From a virus, in the IMG/VR virus record IMGVR_UViG_3300046168_000070, positions 1 through 64,000 of that record: a stretch of DNA of 64,000 nt. One strand, 5' to 3'. The translations under genes were made by a program, and so were the position numbers. Below are positions 3,569-62,799 of the stretch, in pieces (within the stretch, counting starts at the first letter, position 1; every line of letters begins with the position of its first letter). The notes below the pieces were generated by a model. It made no database searches and was not told the origin of the DNA. It saw only the letters and a program-made list of their open reading frames with translations.

Positions 3569-6500
3569 ATGACTCATGTTAATATTATAACGATGCCGAC
3601 TTCTCGTCATTTATTTAAAACCAGTGCTGATACTAATTTATTCAATATATCTTATGCTTTTAATGGGGATCAGACCAAATATAGCCCTAATGAAGCTTTT
3701 TATTTCAATAATATTAAAGAAATGTTTGATAAAATTAATTTGTTCATACGCAACATATGCCTAGGAGATACCTCTGATCTTACAAGTCTATCTAATTTAT
3801 TTGATAGAAGATTTCCACGACTATCATTTAATCACCGACCCATACATGGAAGATTAACATCTCTAAATGAAAACCAAAGTGATTATAATTCAATAGTAGA
3901 CCCAAACTATACATCACGCCAAGACTTTTTAGATAATGAAAGTGAATATAATTACAGGGCGTTCGGGCCTGTCTTCTTTTTTGATGATGATTTAACAGAC
4001 CTCTCAAACCAAGATTACATATTAGATGTTACTCCGCTAGATATGGGAGGGTTTAGGCAAAACAACATCCAGCAAGATTGGCGTTATATGTTCTCTGATA
4101 TAGCAGTAAAAGGAATTAAAGGTATAAATGAAATCAATTTTGACGTAAGAAAATTAGAGTCTTATGGAACTTACAGATTAAGTAATATGTTCCAGTTTTA
4201 CCTTTACCACTCTTTTACGAATTACAGAACTTATCCTTCAGCAGCAACAAACGGCTTCGTAGGCTCAGTAGGCTCAATAAACGAGGTTCTATTACACGCA
4301 ATAGACATATCCCATTGGTGTACAGAAGGAACAAGCGAGCCATCTCGTTTTGTGTACGGAATGAGCGCAATCACTAAAGAAGTCGTACTTATTGATTACA
4401 ATACATCGCCCCCCTCAGAATACGTCACATTCAGAGCGCCAGACTGGGGCTTGGCATGCAATATAAACTTAGAATATACAATATCTAATATTACACCAGG
4501 TTCAAGAGTTCAAGTATATAACCTAACTCAAACATATGAGGTTTATAATGATATAGTCAATGCAAATTCATTGGTAGATTATTTTACTCAAAACGAGATT
4601 CAAGAAGGTGATAAAATAAGGGTAAGAGTTACTTATGTAAATGGAACTTCAGCTAATCAGCCTATAGAACTAATTGAAGAAATTCAATATCCAGGCTTAA
4701 ATATTTCTCTTGATACATCAAGCTCTACAATTTACAATGCAATTGCTATTGATGGTAGTAGTGTCGCAGAGTTTGAAGCTGTGAACTATTCTCAATCTAA
4801 TAAGCCACCAATAATTGAAATCAATGATACAAACAATGAAACTTTTGTAAATAGATTTATAGCTTGGTATTTCAATGAAATAACAACAGAGAACGGAATA
4901 AGTTATTTATATAATGCTTTTATAATTAAATCTGTAAATCAAGTAATAATTAATCCTGATAATAATTTTTATTCCAGCTGGTATTATGGAAAGTTTATAG
5001 GCGCAACAAAATTTAACAATACAAAATTAGATACATTATATTTTAAAAATGGATCAATATATCCATCAGATGGCTCATCTCCTAAAACAGAAGATAGTAA
5101 TGAAATTATTTTTGATGATTTTATTATTGATTTATCAGCGAAAGATGGGAGTTACGCAGGGCTAGACGTCGAATTTGTTTTAGTGGAAACGGGAAGCTTC
5201 GAGGCTAACGTAAGCACGGATTGTATAGATTGCTTGGGTTCGGAAACCACTCAAGAAGTTTTAATAACAGAAGAGTTTTATATAGCTAAAACGGAAGTAA
5301 CTCAATCTCAATATGAACTAATAACTCGCAACAACAACTTAGGTTTAAGCACGAACCCAAGTCAGTATACTGGGCCCAATTTACCAGTTGAGCAAGTCTC
5401 ATGGGATAATGTTCAAGATTTCTTCACTATACTAAATACTGAATATTTAGACATTCTACCAATAGGGTGGAGCTTTAGTCTACCCTCAGAAGCTGAGTGG
5501 GAATTTGCAGGCAGAGGAGGAGTTAACTCTGGATACTACTGGGGAGATACAATTGATTCATCGAAAGCTAATTATAATTGGGACGGTGGTCAAAACGATG
5601 GGAGTGATACTAACAAAACGGTCGATGTAAGCACTTTTGCCCCAAATCCTCTAGGACTTCTTGATATTCACGGTAATGTATCTGAATGGGTATTAGATCC
5701 ATTTCAAATGCAATACCCTGGGACATCTACTAAAGATCCAAATGATTATCCTTATGGAGTAGCTATAGATCCATTCTCTTTTGCGAATTCAGACGAAAGA
5801 ATAATTAAAGGAGGCGCGTGGAACGATGGAGCAGACGCATTAAAATTCGCATATAGATCGAAAGCTCTAAAAAACGCAAAGAGTCGTTCATTAGGGTTCA
5901 GAATAGCCATACGAAAATCTCCCCTTGTATTGTTTAACAGAGATACTTTTATTTTAGTAACCTTTGATACCTCAGGATCTATGTCTGGAGCTGAACCGCA
6001 AATAAGAGCAGCTCTTTCTGGTGGTTACTTTAAGCAAGGTAGCACTACAGAAAGAAGCCCAGAGTCAGTTAGGGCAGTCCTACAAGATTATTATGCCACA
6101 GGAGGAACAGAATTTGAAGGTAATACTAACCCTGCAACAAATGGAAGAGACGAATACGACGCAAAAGTACGATTTATAGAAGATCCATCAGAAAGGCATT
6201 GGGAATATATAAGAAATAGTAAAGGGACGGGTTTAGGGGTAGGAGTGGGTGACGATTTTGAAGGAGCTAAAGCTATTATATCTTTAGCCTTTCAGGATGA
6301 GTCAAGTCCTTACGGTAACAGCGCCACCAACACCCAAAGCCAACAGGATGTATCAAATTTAAAAGCAGAAATACTAGCTCTACCAAACAGTGTTTTATTC
6401 TTTGGTCATGCTTTCCACGTAACAGGGACTGCTGCATTCAAAACTTACCTGCAAGACATTCAAAACGGAAAGTCGGGACTTAGCAGTAATTTTACTTTTC

Positions 6501-6631
6501 AAGATGAGCCATGGAATGAAATGATTGGATTTTCATATGATTTAAATGAAAATGAATCTACTTTATTTTTTAGGAATAAAATTTTAGAAGCCATAGAGGA
6601 TAAGGGTTATCAATTACCTGATTTATTTTAA
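3569..6631 (+). CDS. C-terminal fragment of giant adhesin-like protein: tail-fibre-like module, FGE-sulfatase (CLec-fold) domain, vWA-like domain
   Basis: FYIAKTEVTQSQY, LPVEQVSW, LPSEAEWEFAGRGG, PNPLGLLDIHGNVSEW and SLGFRIA are FGE-sulfatase motifs. FDTSGSMS is a MIDAS-like DxSxS motif. Confidence 0.8.
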   Translation: MTHVNIITMPTSRHLFKTSADTNLFNISYAFNGDQTKYSPNEAFYFNNIKEMFDKINLFIRNICLGDTSDLTSLSNLFDRRFPRLSFNHRPIHGRLTSLNENQSDYNSIVDPNYTSRQDFLDNESEYNYRAFGPVFFFDDDLTDLSNQDYILDVTPLDMGGFRQNNIQQDWRYMFSDIAVKGIKGINEINFDVRKLESYGTYRLSNMFQFYLYHSFTNYRTYPSAATNGFVGSVGSINEVLLHAIDISHWCTEGTSEPSRFVYGMSAITKEVVLIDYNTSPPSEYVTFRAPDWGLACNINLEYTISNITPGSRVQVYNLTQTYEVYNDIVNANSLVDYFTQNEIQEGDKIRVRVTYVNGTSANQPIELIEEIQYPGLNISLDTSSSTIYNAIAIDGSSVAEFEAVNYSQSNKPPIIEINDTNNETFVNRFIAWYFNEITTENGISYLYNAFIIKSVNQVIINPDNNFYSSWYYGKFIGATKFNNTKLDTLYFKNGSIYPSDGSSPKTEDSNEIIFDDFIIDLSAKDGSYAGLDVEFVLVETGSFEANVSTDCIDCLGSETTQEVLITEEFYIAKTEVTQSQYELITRNNNLGLSTNPSQYTGPNLPVEQVSWDNVQDFFTILNTEYLDILPIGWSFSLPSEAEWEFAGRGGVNSGYYWGDTIDSSKANYNWDGGQNDGSDTNKTVDVSTFAPNPLGLLDIHGNVSEWVLDPFQMQYPGTSTKDPNDYPYGVAIDPFSFANSDERIIKGGAWNDGADALKFAYRSKALKNAKSRSLGFRIAIRKSPLVLFNRDTFILVTFDTSGSMSGAEPQIRAALSGGYFKQGSTTERSPESVRAVLQDYYATGGTEFEGNTNPATNGRDEYDAKVRFIEDPSERHWEYIRNSKGTGLGVGVGDDFEGAKAIISLAFQDESSPYGNSATNTQSQQDVSNLKAEILALPNSVLFFGHAFHVTGTAAFKTYLQDIQNGKSGLSSNFTFQDEPWNEMIGFSYDLNENESTLFFRNKILEAIEDKGYQLPDLF

Positions 6632-9102: not shown

Positions 9103-9108
9103 TTACAC
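9103..9108 (-). promoter_or_regulatory. GTGTAA element, 8 nt upstream of ATG 9094
   Basis: ttacac on + strand; recurring motif. Confidence 0.65.
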
Positions 9109-20892: not shown

Positions 20893-23340
20893 ATGAACGC
20901 AGAACCCCAAGCTAATTTTACGCCAAGATGCCAAGCCATCATAAATGAATCTAAAAAATTATGCTCTAAACTAAGGCATGATTCAGTAGAGCCAATTCAT
21001 TTATTTTCTTGTATTCTTAGTAATCAATTTAGCGTAATACCTGATTTATTGGCTACTTATTCTATTAGCATTGACGAAGCTATTACCTGTGTTTCGGCAA
21101 ATCTTCAAAAAGTAAAACCAATAGATAGGAATAGCACTTTCAATATACATTTCTCCAAAGACTGTAAAGAGGTTATATTTTCAGCTATTGAAATTTCAGA
21201 GCAGCTGTTGCATCCTTATGTTGGGGTAGAGCACTTATTAATATCAATACTAGAGCAAAAAGACCCCCTAACTTCTGCAGTTTTAGAATCTCTTGAAATT
21301 AACTATAAAGAGTTTCACGTTCTTTTACATAATCAGTTATTTTTAGCCTCAGGAGTTGATAATATCGGATGGAGCCCTAGTCAATCATCAGTTAACCAAG
21401 AAAGCTCTGCAAGCGCCAAGCATAAATCCCAATCATCCTATCCCGCAATTGAGAAATATTGTAAAAATTTAAATAAAGTTGCAGAACAAGATGGGTTCGC
21501 TAAGTTAGTTAGTAAAGATGCAGAACTTAAAGTTCTATGTGAAATACTTTGTAGAAAAAATAAAAATAATCCTATACTGCTAGGAGAGCCAGGGGTTGGT
21601 AAAACTGCCATTATTGAAGGTTTAGCTTCGTCAATAGTAAATCAAACTTGCCCAAATATTCTATTAAATAAAAGTATATTTTCCCTAGATCTAGGGCTGT
21701 TAGTCGCTGGCACAAAGTACAGAGGTCAATTTGAAGAACGTCTCAAAAAATTATTAAATGAGTTTAAGAATTTCAAAAACTCTATCTTATTTATAGATGA
21801 AATACACACTATTATCGGGGCAGGTGGTGCAGAAGGATCAATGGATGCCTGTAACATACTAAAGCCAGCCTTAGCTAGGGGCGAAGTCTCTTGCATCGGG
21901 GCCACCACTTTGTCTGAATACAAAAAAACTATCAGGAAAGATGGAGCTCTGTCTAGAAGATTTCATCCTATTAAAGTAAATGAGCCTTCCACAGAAGAGA
22001 CTCTTAAAATCCTCAAAGGCATTAGCCCGTTCTACGAAAAATACCACAAAGTTAAGTACCGAGATGAAGCTTTAACTTATTGCGTTAACCTAGCCGAAAA
22101 ATATGTAAATGAAGGAAATTTTCCAGACAAGGCTATAGATATTCTAGATCATGCAGGATCAAAATGTAAAATTAAAAACTTCAATATACCTGACGCTATA
22201 AAAGACTTAGAAAAAACTATATCAGAGAGAATAGATTCCACCTCCTATCTCCATAATGGATCTATGACAGGAGACCTTGAAGAACTTTTCGAAAAGTATG
22301 AGTCAATGCTGAAAGAGTGGGACAAAGATTATGAAAAAAATTTACCTATAATTTCTAAAAAAGAAATACTTGATATAGTTTCTGAAAAGTGCAATGTATC
22401 AATAAAAGATATGGATGAATCTACCGTAGAAAAAGCTAAATCATTAAATAGGTTTTTGTCCAGGAAATTAATTAACCAGAAAGATGCAATAAAATCTTTG
22501 TCTAATTGCTTAAAGCGTAATTTATGTGGGTTAAAAGAGCCCAATAAACCTTTGGGATCATTTTTATTTTTAGGGTCTACAGGAGTGGGTAAAACTTATC
22601 TTTCAAAACTTCTTTCATCTCACTTATTTCAATCAAAAGATTCTTTTATTTCGATAGATATGTCAGAATACTCTGAAAAAAATTCAATATCTAAATTTAT
22701 AGGATCAGCTCCTGGTTATGTAGGCTATGAAGAAGGAGGAGGGCTAGTTGAAAAATTGAGAGCAAACCCTCATGCAGTTGTTCTTTTTGACGAGATAGAA
22801 AAAGCTCATCCCGATGTCTTGAATATCCTATTGCAAATTCTAGAAGAGGGATCTTTAACTGATAATACTGGATATTCTGCAGATTTCTCGAAGTCTATTG
22901 TTATTGCGACTAGCAATATCGGCTCTGAAAAAATAATAGAAAATAAATCATTAGGTTTTATGTCTTCTCCAGAAAGTGCAGAGTCTTTGGCTATTAAAGA
23001 TTTAGAAAAATCAATGAGGCCAGAACTAATCAATAGGTTCGATGAAATTATAGTATTCAATCAATTGAAGGACGATGACTTTAAATCAATTATAAATATA
23101 GAAATATCTAAAATTAAATCAATGCTTAAGCATTCTAAAATACAAATCAATGTAGACGAAAAAGCTTTAGAGTATTTATATAATTTAAATTTTGATAAAA
23201 AATATGGAGCAAGATTTATATCAAGAACATTAAAAAACGAGCTACAAAACCCTCTATCTGACTTTATACTTAAAAATTACCAACAAAAGAAAATCAATAT
23301 TACCACTACGAAAAATGGAAGAGGAATTAAACTATATTAA
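20893..23340 (+). CDS. clpC: ClpC/ClpA-type Hsp100 AAA+ unfoldase
   Basis: Two Clp-N repeats, [14 protein letters not shown] and [15 protein letters not shown], short middle domain, ClpP-docking LGF loop at 22951-22959. Confidence 0.9.
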
Positions 23341-25082: not shown

Positions 25083-25750
25083 TGAAGAAAGTTCTAATTC
25101 ACAGCAATCACTCAAAAGCCTTTACAGGTTTCGGCAAACATACTAAAAATTTATTAATCTTTTTGCAAAAGACAGGTAAGTATGAATTAATAGAGTTTGC
25201 TAACGGTAGAAAGTGGTCAGACCCTACTTTATCTAAAATGCCATGGAAAACATATGGCTCTGCGCCTGATAGCGATATAGCTACTCAAAAAGCCTCAAGA
25301 GACCCCAAGTTAAAACGTCAACTAGGTTACGGGGGCATCATGATAGACGAAGTTATAGAAAAAGAAAAACCTGATGTTTACATAGGGATAGAAGATATAT
25401 GGGCCTTTAGTGGCTACTGGGAAAAGCCTTGGTGGGATAAAATTAATCATGCAGTTTGGACAACCCTTGACAGTTTACCTATTCTACCTGAAGCAGTTAG
25501 CGCTGCTCCTAGAATTAAAAACTATTTTGTTTGGGCTTCTTTTGCGGAAAAGGCTATGAAAGAGCTTGGGCACGGTCACGTCAAAATGATAAGAGGTTCT
25601 TTAGAAACAAATCAATTTTTTAAATTAAATAAAAATGATAAGCTAAAACTAAGGTCTGCATTCGGTATAGACGAAAAAGAATTCATTATAGGCTTTGTAT
25701 TTAGAAACCAACTCCGCAAAAGCGTTCCCAATCTATTAGATGGTTTTTAA
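25082..25750 (+). CDS. GT4-like glycosyltransferase, N-terminal part (frameshifted)
   Basis: KVLIHSN...TGFG and IIGFVFRNQLRKSVPNL; continues in the +1 frame at 25749. Confidence 0.8.
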   Translation: MKKVLIHSNHSKAFTGFGKHTKNLLIFLQKTGKYELIEFANGRKWSDPTLSKMPWKTYGSAPDSDIATQKASRDPKLKRQLGYGGIMIDEVIEKEKPDVYIGIEDIWAFSGYWEKPWWDKINHAVWTTLDSLPILPEAVSAAPRIKNYFVWASFAEKAMKELGHGHVKMIRGSLETNQFFKLNKNDKLKLRSAFGIDEKEFIIGFVFRNQLRKSVPNLLDGF

Positions 25751-26993
25751 AATATTCAGAGATAAAAATCCTGAATCCAAAGCTAAGCTTTTACTGCACA
25801 CAAACTGGTCAGAAGGCTGGGACATTCCTAGGCTTTTAAAAGAGAAGGAAATAGACCCATCATTAGTTTTAACCACTTACTATTGCTCTAAATGTAAAAA
25901 TTATGAAGTCAAAACATTTGTAGGTCAACAACAAAATTGTAAGTTTTGTGGTTCAGAAAAAACACAAAATACTACTAGTGTTAATGCTGGTGTGTCAGAA
26001 GATCAATTAAATCAAGTTTATAATTTAATGGATGTCTATTGTCACCCTTTTACATCTGGCGGGCAAGAGATTCCGATTCAAGAAGCTAAATTAACTGAAT
26101 TAATTACTTTAGTAACTAACTATAGTTGCGGGGAAGACTGTTGTACTGAAGAAAGTGGAGGTTTGCCACTCAACTGGAAAGAATATCGAGAGCCTGGCAC
26201 ACAATTTATTAAAGCTACCACAGATCCTTTCAGTATTTATAAACAATTAAATAAAGTTTATAAAATGAATGAAAAAGACTTAGAGCAAAAAGGTAAAATT
26301 GCCCGTGAGTTTGTCTTAAAAAACTTTTCAATAGAAGTCATAGGAAGGCAAGTAGAAGAGTTTATTGATTCTTGTCCTGAAATTGAATATAATTTTGACA
26401 TCAAGCCTCATAACAAAAAAAGAAACAACAATTATCCATTACAAAAAATAGAAGATAATCTAGAATGGCTTATAGATCTCTATAAAAATATTTTAATAAG
26501 AGATGTTGATGAAAACGATGACGGTATCAAGCATTGGATGGCAAAGATACAGCAGGGAGGCTCAAGAGAAAGTATTCACAACTACTTCATTTCGGTAGCA
26601 AATAAAGAAAACCAAGAAATTGTGGATTCTCTTGATAGGATCCTACGAGAAGATACTTCTAAAAAAATTGCTATAGTTGTAAATGAAAACGCTACAGAAA
26701 CATTTCTCTGCACATCCTTACTACCTTCAATAAAGAGACTGTACGCAGATCATAATATATATTTCTTTGCCCCTGAAAATAGCCTAGATATACTTAAGGG
26801 TAATCCTCATATATATAAAAGCCTACCCGTCTCGGAAGATCTTTTTGATTGTATTTCTCTGGAAAAGAAAAGGGAAGGCGAGAATTTCTTTGATGTAGTC
26901 TATTATCCATCAGATGCTTCTTCAGGAGCATTTCGTTATTGTCATCAAGGAAGAGATAAAATAGAATATAAAACAGAATATGCACATACTTGA
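25740..26993 (+). CDS. GT4-like glycosyltransferase C-terminal part + DUF4214-like + GT9-like segment
   Basis: DVYCHPFTSGGQEIPIQEA (GT4 E-x7-E), CxxC...CxxC insert, LYKNILIRDVD...W...GGSR. Confidence 0.75.
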   Translation: MVFKIFRDKNPESKAKLLLHTNWSEGWDIPRLLKEKEIDPSLVLTTYYCSKCKNYEVKTFVGQQQNCKFCGSEKTQNTTSVNAGVSEDQLNQVYNLMDVYCHPFTSGGQEIPIQEAKLTELITLVTNYSCGEDCCTEESGGLPLNWKEYREPGTQFIKATTDPFSIYKQLNKVYKMNEKDLEQKGKIAREFVLKNFSIEVIGRQVEEFIDSCPEIEYNFDIKPHNKKRNNNYPLQKIEDNLEWLIDLYKNILIRDVDENDDGIKHWMAKIQQGGSRESIHNYFISVANKENQEIVDSLDRILREDTSKKIAIVVNENATETFLCTSLLPSIKRLYADHNIYFFAPENSLDILKGNPHIYKSLPVSEDLFDCISLEKKREGENFFDVVYYPSDASSGAFRYCHQGRDKIEYKTEYAHT

Positions 26994-29002: not shown

Positions 29003-29400
29003 GGGCGTGTACTGGATTCGATTTAAATTAGATTAGTATACTGCAAGTAGGAGTTGCATCTGGCTCCTAAAAAAGGTGCAAACAATTACATGGCAACAAA
29101 AACCGTGTTAAAGCTTTTGGCTTAAAAGCTAAAAAGCTTGCCTTAGCAGCTTAGTTCTGCTACCTCGTAACTTTTGACGCAGATAAAGAGATTACGAGGT
29201 CATCAATCTGCAAAACAGATAAAAGTTTATCCGTTTCATAAACTGTACCATTGAGTATTCGAGGGCCTCAAGTTTGAGTGAATAATTGAAATGGTTAGTT
29301 GGATGTTAATATCATAACTGTAAAAAAAATTAACTAAACTTGTAGATGTATATCTACAGAAAATTTAAAGACGCGGGTTCGACTCCCGCCACGTCCACCA
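29003..29400 (+). ncRNA. ssrA: tmRNA (398 nt, CCA encoded); tag GNKNRVKAFGLKAKKLALAA at 29092-29154
   Basis: Acceptor stem GGGCGTG/CACGTCC-ACCA with G3:U70; CTGGATTCGA; T-arm GCGGGTTCGACTCCCGC; pseudoknot 1 (AGGAG/CTCCT and TTGCATC/GGTGCAA); tag ends LALAA-TAG. Confidence 0.96.
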
Positions 29401-58762: not shown

Positions 58763-58768
58763 GTGTAA
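58763..58768 (+). promoter_or_regulatory. GTGTAA element upstream of the DUF1549/1553 gene
   Basis: 27 nt before ATG 58796. Confidence 0.5.
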
Positions 58769-58786
58769 TTTAATCATAATTGTCTA

Positions 58787-61066
58787 TTGATTGTTATGAA
58801 AATTTTAATCTTATTGTTTTTATCTTCAATTCTCTGTTTTGGGGATACGCTATATTTTAATAACGGAAAAAATTTGAAAGGCGATATTGTAGAGGCGAAT
58901 GCTACACATGCGTTAATTAAAAGATCAAGTGATCTGCAATTATTCAGGATTTCAATTGATTCTTTAACAAAAGACAACCAAGCTTATATTAAAAATAATT
59001 TTCCACCGAGTCATGAAGCTTTGCCTAAATTTAAAAGACCATTATCTGATAGAGATTTAAAAACTCATGCTTATTATATTGATAGCTTAATTGAAGCAAA
59101 ACTCAGAGGGTATAATCTTAGGCCAAATAAGGAGGTCGATGATGCTATATATTTACGTAGAGCATATCTTAAAATTATCGGGAGGACGCCTTCTTTAGCA
59201 GAAGTAAACTCTTTTTTTGATGATAAAGATAAAAATAAAAGATCAAAATTAGTTGATCAGTTATTAGGTAGTGAAGGATATGTAAGTCACTGGTTTAATT
59301 TTTGGGCGGATATATTAAGAATTAAAGATAGGTTAACCAATAGAATATCTGGAGTGCCTTATAAGAATTATGTAAAAGAGTTTATATCAAATAACAGACC
59401 ATACGATGAATGGGTTAGAGAAATGTTATCCTCATCAGGCTCTCTATGGATTAAAGGCAACGAAGGAGTAAGTTATTTTGCTCGTGATGTCAATATGCCT
59501 CTTGATAGCATGGCTAACACAGTACGTATTTTTTTAGGCACAAGCCTCGAGTGCGCCCAATGCCATGACCATCCTTTTGATCGTTGGACTCAAAAACAAT
59601 TTTACGAAATGGCTGCATTCACAAGTGGCTCGACTAATTTGAGAACAAAAAGTCCAGAAAATTTAAGCGTCTTAAATAGATTAGCGAGAGATGAAAGAAG
59701 AAAATTAGAGCAGTCCGATCAACCTCAAAAATCTAGACAGCTACAAAATAGCATAAGAGATATCCAAGATATTTTGCAAACTGGATTAACGAGTTTAGGT
59801 AACGGAAAGATCAGTTTGCCTAAAGATTATCAGTATGATAATGCAAAACCTAATGAAGCTTTACTAGGGAAAACGATTTTCGGTAAAGAGGTAGATATTA
59901 AAACTGTTGCTCCAAATGCAGGTTCTAGGGAAATTTATGCTAATTGGTTGGCGTCTGAATCAAATCCAAGATTTACAGCTGTTATTGTAAATCGCTTGTG
60001 GAAGGAAGTTTTTGGATTAGCTTTAATAGAGCCAATTGATAATATGTTCGATGACACTCTTGCTACCGACCCAAAATTGCAATTACATCTCGAAAAAGTC
60101 ATGGTTGCCTTAAATTATGATTTAAGAGAGTTTTTAAGAATATTGTATAACACTAAAACATTCCAAAAAGAGTCTGTAACCAGAGATGTAATACCTAAGG
60201 ATAATAAAGATCAATCTATGCCTGTAGAAGTTGAGTGGATTATCGCAGGGCCAAATACCAAAGCTCAGTCTAAAGGAGCTGTCCCTTATTTTTATCAAGG
60301 GCCGATATTAGAAAGAATGAGTGGGGAGCAAATTTGGGATTCTTTAGTAAATTTAACATTTGATAATATAGATTCTAGAAAATTAGAGCAAAATACAAAA
60401 GGTTACGATCAATTTCAAACTCTTTCAGCCATGAGTGGAGAAGAATTATTTGAAGATATAATGGCTAAAATCAATAAAACCGAAAAGCCTAAAGCTGCAA
60501 GTAAATCAAAATTTGGTGAGCCGATAAATACTGATTGCCCTATCAAGCCTGGAAGAGCAATCGACCCAACATTATTAGCTCTCAATGAGAACGGTGAAAC
60601 TTTGGCATTTTGCTGTGAATCTTGTGTTGATAAATACAAATCTCAAAAGAAAGCTAGAGAGCAAGAGTACAAGCAGAATTTTGTCAAAGATAGAAATTCA
60701 GTTAGAGCTTCCGAACTATCTTCTCCCGCTCCGATTGGTCATTTAATCAGAGAGTTTGGCGGCTCAGATAGAGAGCAGATCGAAAACGCAAACAAAAGCG
60801 CTTCAGCGACACAAGTATTAAATTTATTAAATGGGTTCGTTGAAACAAGGTTATTGAAAAATAAAAACTTTGAAGTTATTAAAGCAATTGAATCTCAAAA
60901 GTCGTTAAGTGATAAAATAACAGTAGGTTATAAATATATATTAAACCGAGAGCCTACTTCTAAAGAATTAAGGATATTTACTGATAATTTAAAAAATACG
61001 AAAGATGCATATAAAGAAATAATATGGGTATTAATTAATAGTCATGAATTTATGTTTGTTAGGTAA
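58787..61066 (+). CDS. Secreted DUF1549 + DUF1553 (PSCyt2/PSD1) protein with CxxCH haem motif, SHD1-like N-terminus and YHS-like insert
   Basis: Signal peptide, YLRRAYLKIIGRTP, CAQCHDHPFD, NPRFTAVIVNRLW and WVLINSHEF; ATG 58796 is a likely start. Confidence 0.92.
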   Translation: MIVMKILILLFLSSILCFGDTLYFNNGKNLKGDIVEANATHALIKRSSDLQLFRISIDSLTKDNQAYIKNNFPPSHEALPKFKRPLSDRDLKTHAYYIDSLIEAKLRGYNLRPNKEVDDAIYLRRAYLKIIGRTPSLAEVNSFFDDKDKNKRSKLVDQLLGSEGYVSHWFNFWADILRIKDRLTNRISGVPYKNYVKEFISNNRPYDEWVREMLSSSGSLWIKGNEGVSYFARDVNMPLDSMANTVRIFLGTSLECAQCHDHPFDRWTQKQFYEMAAFTSGSTNLRTKSPENLSVLNRLARDERRKLEQSDQPQKSRQLQNSIRDIQDILQTGLTSLGNGKISLPKDYQYDNAKPNEALLGKTIFGKEVDIKTVAPNAGSREIYANWLASESNPRFTAVIVNRLWKEVFGLALIEPIDNMFDDTLATDPKLQLHLEKVMVALNYDLREFLRILYNTKTFQKESVTRDVIPKDNKDQSMPVEVEWIIAGPNTKAQSKGAVPYFYQGPILERMSGEQIWDSLVNLTFDNIDSRKLEQNTKGYDQFQTLSAMSGEELFEDIMAKINKTEKPKAASKSKFGEPINTDCPIKPGRAIDPTLLALNENGETLAFCCESCVDKYKSQKKAREQEYKQNFVKDRNSVRASELSSPAPIGHLIREFGGSDREQIENANKSASATQVLNLLNGFVETRLLKNKNFEVIKAIESQKSLSDKITVGYKYILNREPTSKELRIFTDNLKNTKDAYKEIIWVLINSHEFMFVR

Positions 61067-61428
61067 TCCCATCTATTATATTTAAAAAAATAAATCATAT
61101 CATCTTTTATATAAATCCAACCCCATTTCTCTGTATAAAAATACCCTTTATAGCTTGGAGCATTATATATCCATCCTAATTTTTCAGAATACAACCAACT
61201 TCTAGAAATAGATTTTTTGTAAGTTCCATAAACTCTCCCCAAAGTTTTCATTGTGAACCACAAGCCTTTCGGTTTTTTACCGCATCTTGCCATCCATTCG
61301 CCAAGATCTAACGGTTGAGTAGATTTAGCTTGATTTTTGCACCAATCGCAATTATCTAGAAAATCTTTTCTTTCCACCCTTGCTTCTAGACAAATATATA
61401 TTAATATAAAAAGAAGCGAAAACCTCAT
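61042..61428 (-). CDS. Secreted Trp/Tyr-rich repeat protein
   Basis: Signal peptide; WLYSEKLGWIY and FYTEKWGWIY repeats. Confidence 0.7.
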   Translation of the reverse strand: MRFSLLFILIYICLEARVERKDFLDNCDWCKNQAKSTQPLDLGEWMARCGKKPKGLWFTMKTLGRVYGTYKKSISRSWLYSEKLGWIYNAPSYKGYFYTEKWGWIYIKDDMIYFFKYNRWDYLTNINS

Positions 61429-61436
61429 ATATTGTA

Positions 61437-61442
61437 TTACAC
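61437..61442 (-). promoter_or_regulatory. GTGTAA element, 8 nt upstream of ATG 61428
   Basis: ttacac on + strand. Confidence 0.65.
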
Positions 61443-61465
61443 TTGTGTTGATTTTTCTTTAAAAT

Positions 61466-61471
61466 GTGTAA
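61466..61471 (+). promoter_or_regulatory. GTGTAA element, 10 nt upstream of ATG 61482
   Basis: Divergent partner of the 61437 element. Confidence 0.65.
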
Positions 61472-61481
61472 TAATAATATT

Positions 61482-62774
61482 ATGAACTTAAATACAATTG
61501 ATGAATTAGGGAGAAGAGAATTTATAGCGCATGCCGCAAAAGCATGCTTCGGAGTAGGGCTTATGCCGATGGCAGGAGCTTATATTAACAATACAGTGAG
61601 CGCTCTTGAGCCTAGTACTAGAGTTCCGACAGCTAGGCATGTCATTTATTTAAATATGTCAGGAGCGATGTCGCATCTTGACACATTTGCCCCAAAGCCT
61701 GACGCTCCTGATATTCAAGGGCCTACTAAATCAATTGCAACAAGCGCTGATGGAGTTATTTTATCCGAAAATCTACCAAAAACAGCGAAACTAATGCATC
61801 TTGGGTCAATTATCAAAACAATGAATACTAGTCAAGGAGCCCACATGCAAGCAAGTTATTTAATGCACACTAGTTATCTTAAGAGGGGCACAATTGTGCA
61901 TCCTACATTCGGGAGTTGGGTGTCAAAGCTTTCAGGTTCAATGAATAAAACAATACCTAGCAATGTTAAGATTGGAGGTGGAGGAGGCGGAGCTGGCTTT
62001 CTAGAGTCTAAATACGGCGCTCTTCCTATTAACAACCCTTCCTCAGGTCTAGCTAATAGTAAAATGGCTTCGTATTTAGATCATGAGCATTTTCAAAGCA
62101 GAATATCTATTGCCGAGCAATTGAATCAAAATTTTTCTACAGAATTTCCATTAAAACAAGTAAGAGCTTACAGTGACTTATATAAAGACGCAATAAAATT
62201 AATGAATAGTAATGATCTAAATGCTTTTGATATCACTAAAGAGCCAGCATCTGCAAGTGATCTTTATGGAAACACTAACTTCGGTAAAGGTTGCTTGTTA
62301 GCTAAAAGGCTAGTTGAGCATGGTGTTAGGTATGTAGAAGTTACGCGAGGAGGTTGGGATACTCATGATAATAACTTTGAAAGAGTTGCTGCAAATTGTG
62401 CTGATATCGATCAAGCTTTAAGCGGACTTCTTATTGATTTAGACAGAAGAGGGCTTTTATCAGAGACTTTGGTTGTATTAACCTCTGAATTTGGCAGAAC
62501 GCCAAACATAAATGGAAGAGACGGGAGAGACCATTGGCCTTATTGCTTCACAGCTTTTCTCGCAGGAGGTGGAGTGAAAGGTGGATTTACTTATGGTGAG
62601 ACAGACAAAACAGGCAGATCTCCTGTTGAAGGAAAACCTATCAAGCCAGAAGATTTGAATGCTACTATAGCTCATACCCTTGGTTTATCTTTAAATAATT
62701 ATCAATATTCCCCGTCAGGAAGACCTTTTACTATAGCCCATAAAGGCGAGCCTTTGTTTGATATTTTATCTTGA
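61482..62774 (+). CDS. Tat-exported DUF1501 family protein (alkaline phosphatase/sulfatase-like superfamily)
   Basis: GRREFI Tat motif, IYLNMSGAMSHLDTF, GCLLAKRLVEHGVRYVEV, GGWDTH, TSEFGRTP and GRDHWP. Confidence 0.92.
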   Translation: MNLNTIDELGRREFIAHAAKACFGVGLMPMAGAYINNTVSALEPSTRVPTARHVIYLNMSGAMSHLDTFAPKPDAPDIQGPTKSIATSADGVILSENLPKTAKLMHLGSIIKTMNTSQGAHMQASYLMHTSYLKRGTIVHPTFGSWVSKLSGSMNKTIPSNVKIGGGGGGAGFLESKYGALPINNPSSGLANSKMASYLDHEHFQSRISIAEQLNQNFSTEFPLKQVRAYSDLYKDAIKLMNSNDLNAFDITKEPASASDLYGNTNFGKGCLLAKRLVEHGVRYVEVTRGGWDTHDNNFERVAANCADIDQALSGLLIDLDRRGLLSETLVVLTSEFGRTPNINGRDGRDHWPYCFTAFLAGGGVKGGFTYGETDKTGRSPVEGKPIKPEDLNATIAHTLGLSLNNYQYSPSGRPFTIAHKGEPLFDILS

Positions 62775-62799
62775 CAAATAATTTAAATTCATCTATAAT
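62771..62799 (+). promoter_or_regulatory. Sigma70-like promoter, leaderless transcript
   Basis: TTGACA-17 bp-TATAAT, ATG 6 nt downstream. Confidence 0.85.

Follow-up and report, generated by a model that had tools for sequence, protein, structure and literature searches.

The 64,000-nucleotide window analyzed here, the first 64 kb of the 193,844-bp IMG/VR virus record IMGVR_UViG_3300046168_000070, carries two genes of a type known from bacteria of the Planctomycetes-Verrucomicrobia-Chlamydiae (PVC) group: gene A, encoding a PSCyt2/PSD1 (DUF1549/DUF1553) protein with a c-type haem motif, and gene B, encoding a DUF1501 protein with a twin-arginine translocation (Tat) signal. With a probability of roughly 0.7, we read them as an auxiliary pair of host origin in a large tailed phage of lytic type, the hosts of which are most likely marine Opitutales. 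The record was rated complete by CheckV (100%), and the window, with a GC content of approximately 33%, encodes lambda-like tail proteins L and J, DnaB, a primase, and a PD-(D/E)XK nuclease, as well as DNA polymerase III alpha, the small chain of ribonucleotide reductase (RNR), a ClpB-like ATPase, and a transfer-messenger RNA (tmRNA), in agreement with the claim of an initial annotation, made from the sequence alone, that the pair is carried by a phage. The module is itself flanked by phage genes, with gmd/fcl upstream and a deoxynucleoside monophosphate (dNMP) kinase gene downstream.

The search of viral databases that the initial annotation had proposed identified DUF1501 at 60 to 100% identity in at least 49 IMG/VR contigs from more than 40 metagenomes; approximately 31 of these contigs carry the partner gene directly upstream, and at least 17 carry the enzyme without the partner. 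An independent 64-kb assembly encodes an enzyme 100% identical and a partner 98% identical to those of the window. With a profile-based scan the number of viral stretches carrying DUF1501 rose to 203, and distant versions (~52% and ~42%) were found inserted beside RNR or replication genes of related phages. At loci L034 to L042, L048, and L092, the DUF1501 gene is present without the partner and starts approximately 15 nt past the 3' end of a tRNA (GGTTCGACTCC...CCACCA), which suggests tRNA-adjacent cargo insertion in one viral clade. Locus L092 (JAYQMT010000004.1; 210,818 bp), from a metagenome-assembled genome (MAG) labeled "Cellvibrionales," has a GC content of 35%, and the sequences around its DUF1501 gene correspond to several genes of the window's phage; it appears to be the nearly complete genome of a related phage that was wrongly binned with a gammaproteobacterial MAG.

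Neither protein had a tblastn match among GenBank phages (INPHARED) or a family in PHROGs or NCBIfam. The literature searched held no description of the DUF1501 or PSCyt2/PSD1 families in phages and no paper covering both DUF1501 and DUF1553, so the earlier statement that no phage role had been described for the pair stands. Papers on DUF1501, DUF1549, DUF1800, and COG4102 gave no function, and the single phage paper naming DUF1501 did so for a weak CDD match on a 61-aa open reading frame (ORF). Among the best matches listed, the sole DUF1501-named viral protein was UniProt A0A6J5M742 (BFVD; uncultured Caudovirales phage; E = 1e-8), which shares 16% identity, has automatic annotation only, and is the subject of no study that we found; it shows that phage-borne DUF1501 genes are already present in public databases.

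The closest cellular copies of the enzyme (64 to 79% identity) and of the partner (up to 64%) all come from MAGs or single-amplified genomes of marine Opitutales, including Ca. Seribacter and Ca. Chordibacter. As these loci have GC contents of 39 to 53% and share only the two module genes with the phage, they are genuine host copies. The host genomes are 2.1 to 2.7 Mb in length and encode 18 to 22 DUF1501 paralogues, and the phage type belongs with just one of these, a divergent paralogue present in single copy. This paralogue lies in a conserved gene order consisting of a tetratricopeptide repeat multihaem cytochrome, PSCyt2/PSD1, DUF1501, a PSCyt1 leucine-rich repeat protein, a ribbon-helix-helix protein, a class-V aminotransferase, and a sulfatase.

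Comparison with the host paralogues, likewise proposed at the outset, placed the viral copies among Opitutales sequences in several clades. All trees came from quick IQ-TREE runs with the LG+G4 model. A 121-row tree grouped the viral enzymes into three well-supported clades (a minimum of three) nested among Opitutales sequences, and an 81-row tree with more distant viral groups gave at least six viral clades and required at least six label changes; one phage copy (L169) is separated from host copies by 0.03 to 0.06 substitutions per site. Approximately unbiased (AU) tests rejected a single viral clade both for DUF1501 (log-likelihood difference, 158) and for the partner (261). The topologies for the partner and the enzyme agree, which implies at least two transfers of the pair as a unit. 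As the trees and AU tests reject a single viral origin, we conclude that the pair, or the enzyme alone, moved repeatedly. By these relationships the phage hosts are most likely marine Opitutales (Verrucomicrobiota) of the MB11C04/Seribacteraceae/Puniceicoccaceae type.

Among the phage copies, synonymous sites are saturated (pS, 0.68 to 0.83; pN, 0.05 to 0.12), and dN/dS, where computable, is 0.02 to 0.07. The GC content at third codon positions (GC3) is 0.25 to 0.26 in the phage copies, compared with 0.25 to 0.29 in core phage genes and 0.37 to 0.45 in host orthologues, in keeping with the AT-rich, phage-like codons noted earlier. The module is adapted to the base composition and upstream signals of the phage and is under strong purifying selection. 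Its earlier description as domesticated rather than freshly captured is upheld by its conservation in the phage clade, its phage-like GC3, and its low dN/dS. Features of auxiliary genes are thus present, namely nesting within host homologues, viral flanks, and purifying selection.

Both genes are preceded by the hexamer GTGTAA, as had been reported (Table 1), and in relatives the motif stands 8 to 10 nt before the ATG of the partner. Genome-wide, GTGTAA was seen 58 times against approximately 133 expected; 27 of the 58 copies fall in the noncoding 7% of the genome, and 33 are sense-oriented beside a start codon, most often 8 nt upstream (e.g., at window positions 9103, 11440, 38910, 39985, and 61437; consensus aGTGTAAt..a..atATG). 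The form GTGTA[AT] was found upstream of the partner in 23 of 32 viral but only 1 of 52 host copies, and upstream of DUF1501 in 12 of 49 viral versus 1 of 58 host copies. Contiguous pairs have the motif on the first gene only, and in the window's sub-clade a minus-strand ORF inserted between the genes brings with it a back-to-back motif pair (61437, minus; 61466, plus). The copy before gene B is contained in a sigma70-like extended -10 promoter match, and relatives have TTGACT at the position of the window's TTGATT. No conserved -35 element was found across the genome near the start-codon copies of GTGTAA. The proposal that the pair is wired to the phage's own promoter class therefore held in part: the element is real, phage-specific, and enriched before genes, but it is at most a putative promoter, with no conserved -35 and a fixed distance of ~8 nt to start codons. 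This placement would suit the -10 element of leaderless transcripts and a translation signal of an unusual kind equally well.

The gene A protein begins with a Sec-type signal, read from the sequence (MKILILLFLSSILCFG), with ATG 58796 the likelier start and an in-frame TTG at 58787 the alternative. PSCyt2/DUF1549 (PF07583; E = 2e-45; 155.7 bits versus a cut-off of 29.8) and PSD1/DUF1553 (PF07587; E = 2e-24; 87 bits versus 28.5) occur in this single protein in the expected order, both above the gathering score, and are followed by a C-terminal DUF4214 (E = 3e-7). The CAQCH motif (residues 253 to 257), unchanged across all 32 viral and cellular sequences aligned, is predicted to attach haem. Of the six cysteines in the mature protein, CAQCH accounts for two and a CPIKPGR...FCCESC module for the other four, this module having weak matches below the cut-off (E ~0.01) to TRASH_HVO_1752_C (16.9 versus 27 bits) and zf-FCS (16.1 versus 22.4 bits). 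By sequence the protein had no match in the PDB. In a structure search with its model (mf14b41d77fbe; pLDDT, 84.7), no solved fold matched the core, and the only parts with matches were the barrel at the N terminus (SHD1/Hfq-like) and the C-terminal DUF4214 region (phycobilisome-linker-like).

Host orthologues of gene A share the SHD1-like N terminus and have one or two TRASH-like modules, some with an extra cytochrome domain; these parts therefore represent the ancestral state, from which the phage protein has been trimmed. Sequence comparison thus indicates that neither the SHD1-like domain nor the YHS/TRASH-like insert arose in phages. The four cysteines are conserved wherever the TRASH-like module is present, and one viral clade (L025 to L031) has lost the module entirely. 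The host partners vary by cassette-like inserts at one site (L051, L056, and L060 to L068 versus L052, L072, and L080), consisting of one or two TRASH-like modules or of a TRASH module accompanied by a further cytochrome domain with CxxCH.

Gene B encodes a full-length DUF1501 protein (PF07394) matching profile positions 1 to 389 of 390 (E = 4e-108; 362.4 bits versus a cut-off of 27; 362.7 bits in a six-frame search of the genome), with translation probably starting at ATG 61482, as in relatives. In its Tat signal, read from the sequence (GRREFIAHAAKACFGVGL), R17 and R18 are invariant in 39 sequences. His and Asp are prominent among the invariant residues (H71, D73, H127, D299, H301, E342, D356, and H357), and all residues invariant in the family are retained in the phage copies. 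All motifs listed in the initial annotation (CAQCH, CPIKPGR/FCCESC, RREF, GGWDTH, SEFGRTP, and RDH) were recovered in place, and with the Pfam matches and invariant residues also present, its description of an intact PVC-type PSCyt2/PSD1 and DUF1501 pair was confirmed.

A formylglycine motif (C/S-x-P-x-R) is absent from gene B, as is a match to Pfam Sulfatase (PF00884) at E <= 0.01, and the score against Phosphodiest (PF01663) is 16.8 bits, below the cut-off of 23. Gene B had no PDB match by sequence; a profile search of the PDB gave only sub-threshold sulfatase fragments, and a feature search of the ESM Atlas with known families excluded gave no usable match. In the profile alignment, E342 occupies the position of the metal-binding Asp of sulfatases, and the fold alone is common to gene B and the S1 formylglycine-dependent sulfatases. 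Best matches in Foldseek include the lipoteichoic acid synthases LtaS/LtaP, and identity to ENPP6 (5ege), Xac NPP (2gsn), and PafA (5tj3) is only 11 to 16%. The initial annotation had suggested a possible redox plus phosphatase/sulfatase-like system; as modeled, the fold favors a two-metal phospho-esterase over a formylglycine sulfatase. Unlike DUF1501 here, enzymes of the NPP/PafA type have no haem-protein partner.

DUF1501 together with PSCyt1/PSCyt2/PSD1 has been described as a conserved genetic module of Planctomycetes, Verrucomicrobia, and Lentisphaerae (Kamneva et al. 2012, PMC3542564; He et al. 2017, PMC5615132), and a Tat signal is described for many DUF1501 members (PMC3542564). The phage pair resembles this module in its two Pfam architectures, in having the haem-motif gene upstream and DUF1501 downstream, in the signal peptide of the first protein and the twin arginine of the second, and in the invariant CxxCH. 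It differs in being phage-encoded, with phage base composition and behind phage upstream motifs, in the minus-strand ORF that splits the operon in the window, and in the shortened partner, which measures 756 aa against the 841 to 893 aa of its nearest host counterparts, carries a single TRASH-like module, and lacks an additional cytochrome domain.

Nutrient-related auxiliary genes of phages include phoA, pstS, and phoH of cyanophages, and psbA is the model of a repeatedly exchanged host gene. The pair is like phage auxiliary metabolic genes in its host derivation, purifying selection, repeated exchange between host and phage, and probable function in the infected cell rather than the virion; unlike the cyanophage genes, it belongs to a functionally uncharacterized family, has Verrucomicrobia as probable hosts, and constitutes a two-gene exported cargo.

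In the infected cell, the phage would produce a Tat-exported DUF1501 metallo-enzyme of the alkaline phosphatase superfamily and a Sec-exported PSCyt2/PSD1 partner with a c-type haem motif and a four-Cys, putatively metal-binding module. Because of their predicted export signals, both proteins are expected in the periplasm of the infected cell and not in the virion. The pair would duplicate one specific single-copy periplasmic system of the host, so that this step could be sustained or boosted while the host's own expression declines. Our tentative candidate for the reaction, advanced with less than even confidence, is the hydrolysis or transfer of a periplasmic phosphate ester, which, by analogy with phage genes of the phoA/pstS type, would supply phosphorus for replication of the 194-kb genome. 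As many phage lineages keep DUF1501 alone, the enzyme appears to be the selected part and the partner an accessory, and because the enzyme is always kept by the phages, the pair is read as an auxiliary system sustaining one periplasmic reaction of the host. Related phages have captured the same host pair several times, and the module therefore probably matters for infection.

Several points weigh against this account. None of the DUF1501 or PSCyt2/PSD1 proteins has a known biochemical function (PMC3542564, PMC5615132), and the catalytic nucleophile (Thr/Ser) of DUF1501 was not located. The host synteny is without pho/pst genes and has cytochromes, a class-V aminotransferase, and a sulfatase, and a hydrolytic system offers no evident reason for a haem-carrying partner. 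Both the assignment to these hosts and expression of the genes during infection are what we infer from sequence.

It could instead be that the exported enzyme remodels a phosphorylated or sulfated envelope polymer, like the LtaS/EptA-type members of the same superfamily, and that, together with an adjacent 12-kb phage glycan-synthesis cluster, it masks receptors, excludes superinfection, or aids release. We consider this unlikely, although LtaS/LtaP are among the top Foldseek matches, the phage encodes a protein with a formylglycine-generating enzyme (FGE)-sulfatase domain at 3569 to 6631, and GDP-fucose synthesis genes and glycosyltransferases immediately precede the module in the window's clade, with gmd/fcl within 2 to 8 kb of it in many relatives. 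In other phage clades the module is found by RNR or replication genes or after a tRNA gene, so that proximity to the glycan cluster is not a conserved feature; the host orthologue, conserved and single copy, is without glycan-synthesis neighbors, and LtaS and EptA have N-terminal membrane domains, whereas the gene B protein has a Tat signal only. A lower probability still is given to a sulfate-ester hydrolase or other nonphosphate esterase, through which host use of sulfated algal polysaccharides, the niche of marine Opitutales, would yield carbon and energy during infection. The hosts do specialize on sulfated methyl-pentose polymers (PMC8857213), their orthologue has a sulfatase gene and an FGE-sulfatase gene nearby, and the only PDB profile matches, weak as they are, are sulfatases; however, the formylglycine motif and Pfam Sulfatase match are missing, the conserved D-x-H and D-H pairs are closer to two-metal phosphoryl-transfer sites than to the S1 Ca site, and many true sulfatases are already encoded by the hosts.

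That the genes have no phage function, being passenger host DNA, an assembly chimera, or a misclassified host island, is very improbable. Some IMG/VR contigs are misclassified and binning errors do occur, as with the 210-kb phage contig L092, but near-identical as well as divergent copies with the same phage flanks come from independent assemblies, phage genes lie on both sides, and the GC3, selection, and repeated capture all point the other way; the conserved flanks across more than 40 metagenomes, with GC3 and selection, rule out a chimera or host island.

DUF1501 and PSCyt/PSD1 are among the most expanded families of Planctomycetes and Verrucomicrobia, none with a known function, and the phages supply minimal, diverse natural variants in which the enzyme stands alone or the partner is trimmed. 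Repeated choice by phages, with strong selection, would mark this orthologue as physiologically important. Of approximately 20 Opitutales DUF1501 paralogues, the same one was captured at least four to six times (with the partner at least twice); by analogy with psbA this may reflect a phage-limiting step, an idea we regard as doubtful. The captured system could be a still-unrecognized phosphorus or metal acquisition pathway of marine Verrucomicrobia. If that idea is true, the compact phage versions, including those with the enzyme only, would be the best handle for a first function of the very large DUF1501, DUF1549, and DUF1553 families. The pair would also link a family of marine phages of ~200 kb to the Opitutales, a group with very few known phages, and it adds to the catalogue of phage auxiliary genes a family that was not listed there.

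Table 1. Features of the module and its surroundings (window positions)
Feature	Position	Strand	Details
GTGTAA	58763-58768	+	27 nt 5' of ATG 58796 (gene A)
Gene A	58796-61066	+	Predicted Sec-exported PSCyt2/PSD1 protein, 756 aa
Gene A, N-terminal layout			Signal peptide, aa 1-16; SHD1-like beta-barrel, ~aa 17-68; PSCyt2, ~aa 95-277
Gene A, C-terminal layout			PSD1, ~aa 378-729; DUF4214, ~aa 705-753
CAQCH haem-c attachment motif (predicted)	59552-59566	+	C253, C256, H257; invariant in 32/32 aligned sequences
Four-Cys TRASH/YHS-like module	60536-60625	+	CPIKPGR, 60536-60556; FCCESC, 60608-60625
128-aa ORF with signal peptide	61042-61428	-	Between genes A and B; no family match
Sigma70-like extended -10 promoter match	61448-61475	+	TTGATT-N16-AATAAT preceded by TG; contains GTGTAA 61466-61471
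Gene B	61464/61482-62774	+	Predicted Tat-exported DUF1501 enzyme, 436 aa from ATG 61464
GTGTAA	61466-61471	+	10 nt 5' of ATG 61482 (gene B)
RREF twin-arginine motif	61512-61523	+	Gene B
GGWDTH	62349-62366	+	Gene B
SEFGRTP	62484-62504	+	Gene B
RDH	62526-62534	+	Gene B
dNMP kinase gene	62806		PHROG-139; downstream of gene B

Genes A and B lie on one strand with the partner upstream, and the gap between them, 1 to 21 nt in most viral relatives and 22 to 62 nt in hosts, is 397 nt in the window because of the inserted minus-strand ORF. This ORF, which the initial annotation did not mention, has its own GTGTAA-N8-ATG (motif at 61437 to 61442), is kept at 58 to 100% identity in the sub-clade comprising L002 to L004, L006, L007, L015, L017, and L018, and is absent where the gene pair is contiguous. 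Its product is a small, predicted secreted protein rich in W/Y/G repeats (WGWIY-like), and distant copies (26 to 28%) were found upstream of the partner in L019, L045, and L046.

Immediately 5' of the dNMP kinase gene, at 62771 to 62799 (+), is a perfect sigma70 consensus (TTGACA-N17-TATAAT; 12/12), so that upstream signals of at least two kinds are in use in this genome. The full-length tmRNA at 29003 to 29400 (+) matches Rfam RF00023 with 130 bits and has the ARAGORN tag peptide ANNYMATKTVLKLLA; as a host marker it was rejected, as only its 3' 31 nt match Opitutales genomes (94%), which is not diagnostic. The FGE-sulfatase-domain protein (+ strand; 1020 aa) is PorK/GldK- and PvdO-like and belongs to PHROG 18508; a role for it as a maturase of DUF1501 is unsupported, as DUF1501 is without a formylglycine motif and the genes are 52 kb apart. 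The window also contains a gene for a ClpB/ClpA-type double AAA+ chaperone at 20893 to 23340 (+), and a second DUF4214-domain protein is encoded at 25740 to 26993 (+).

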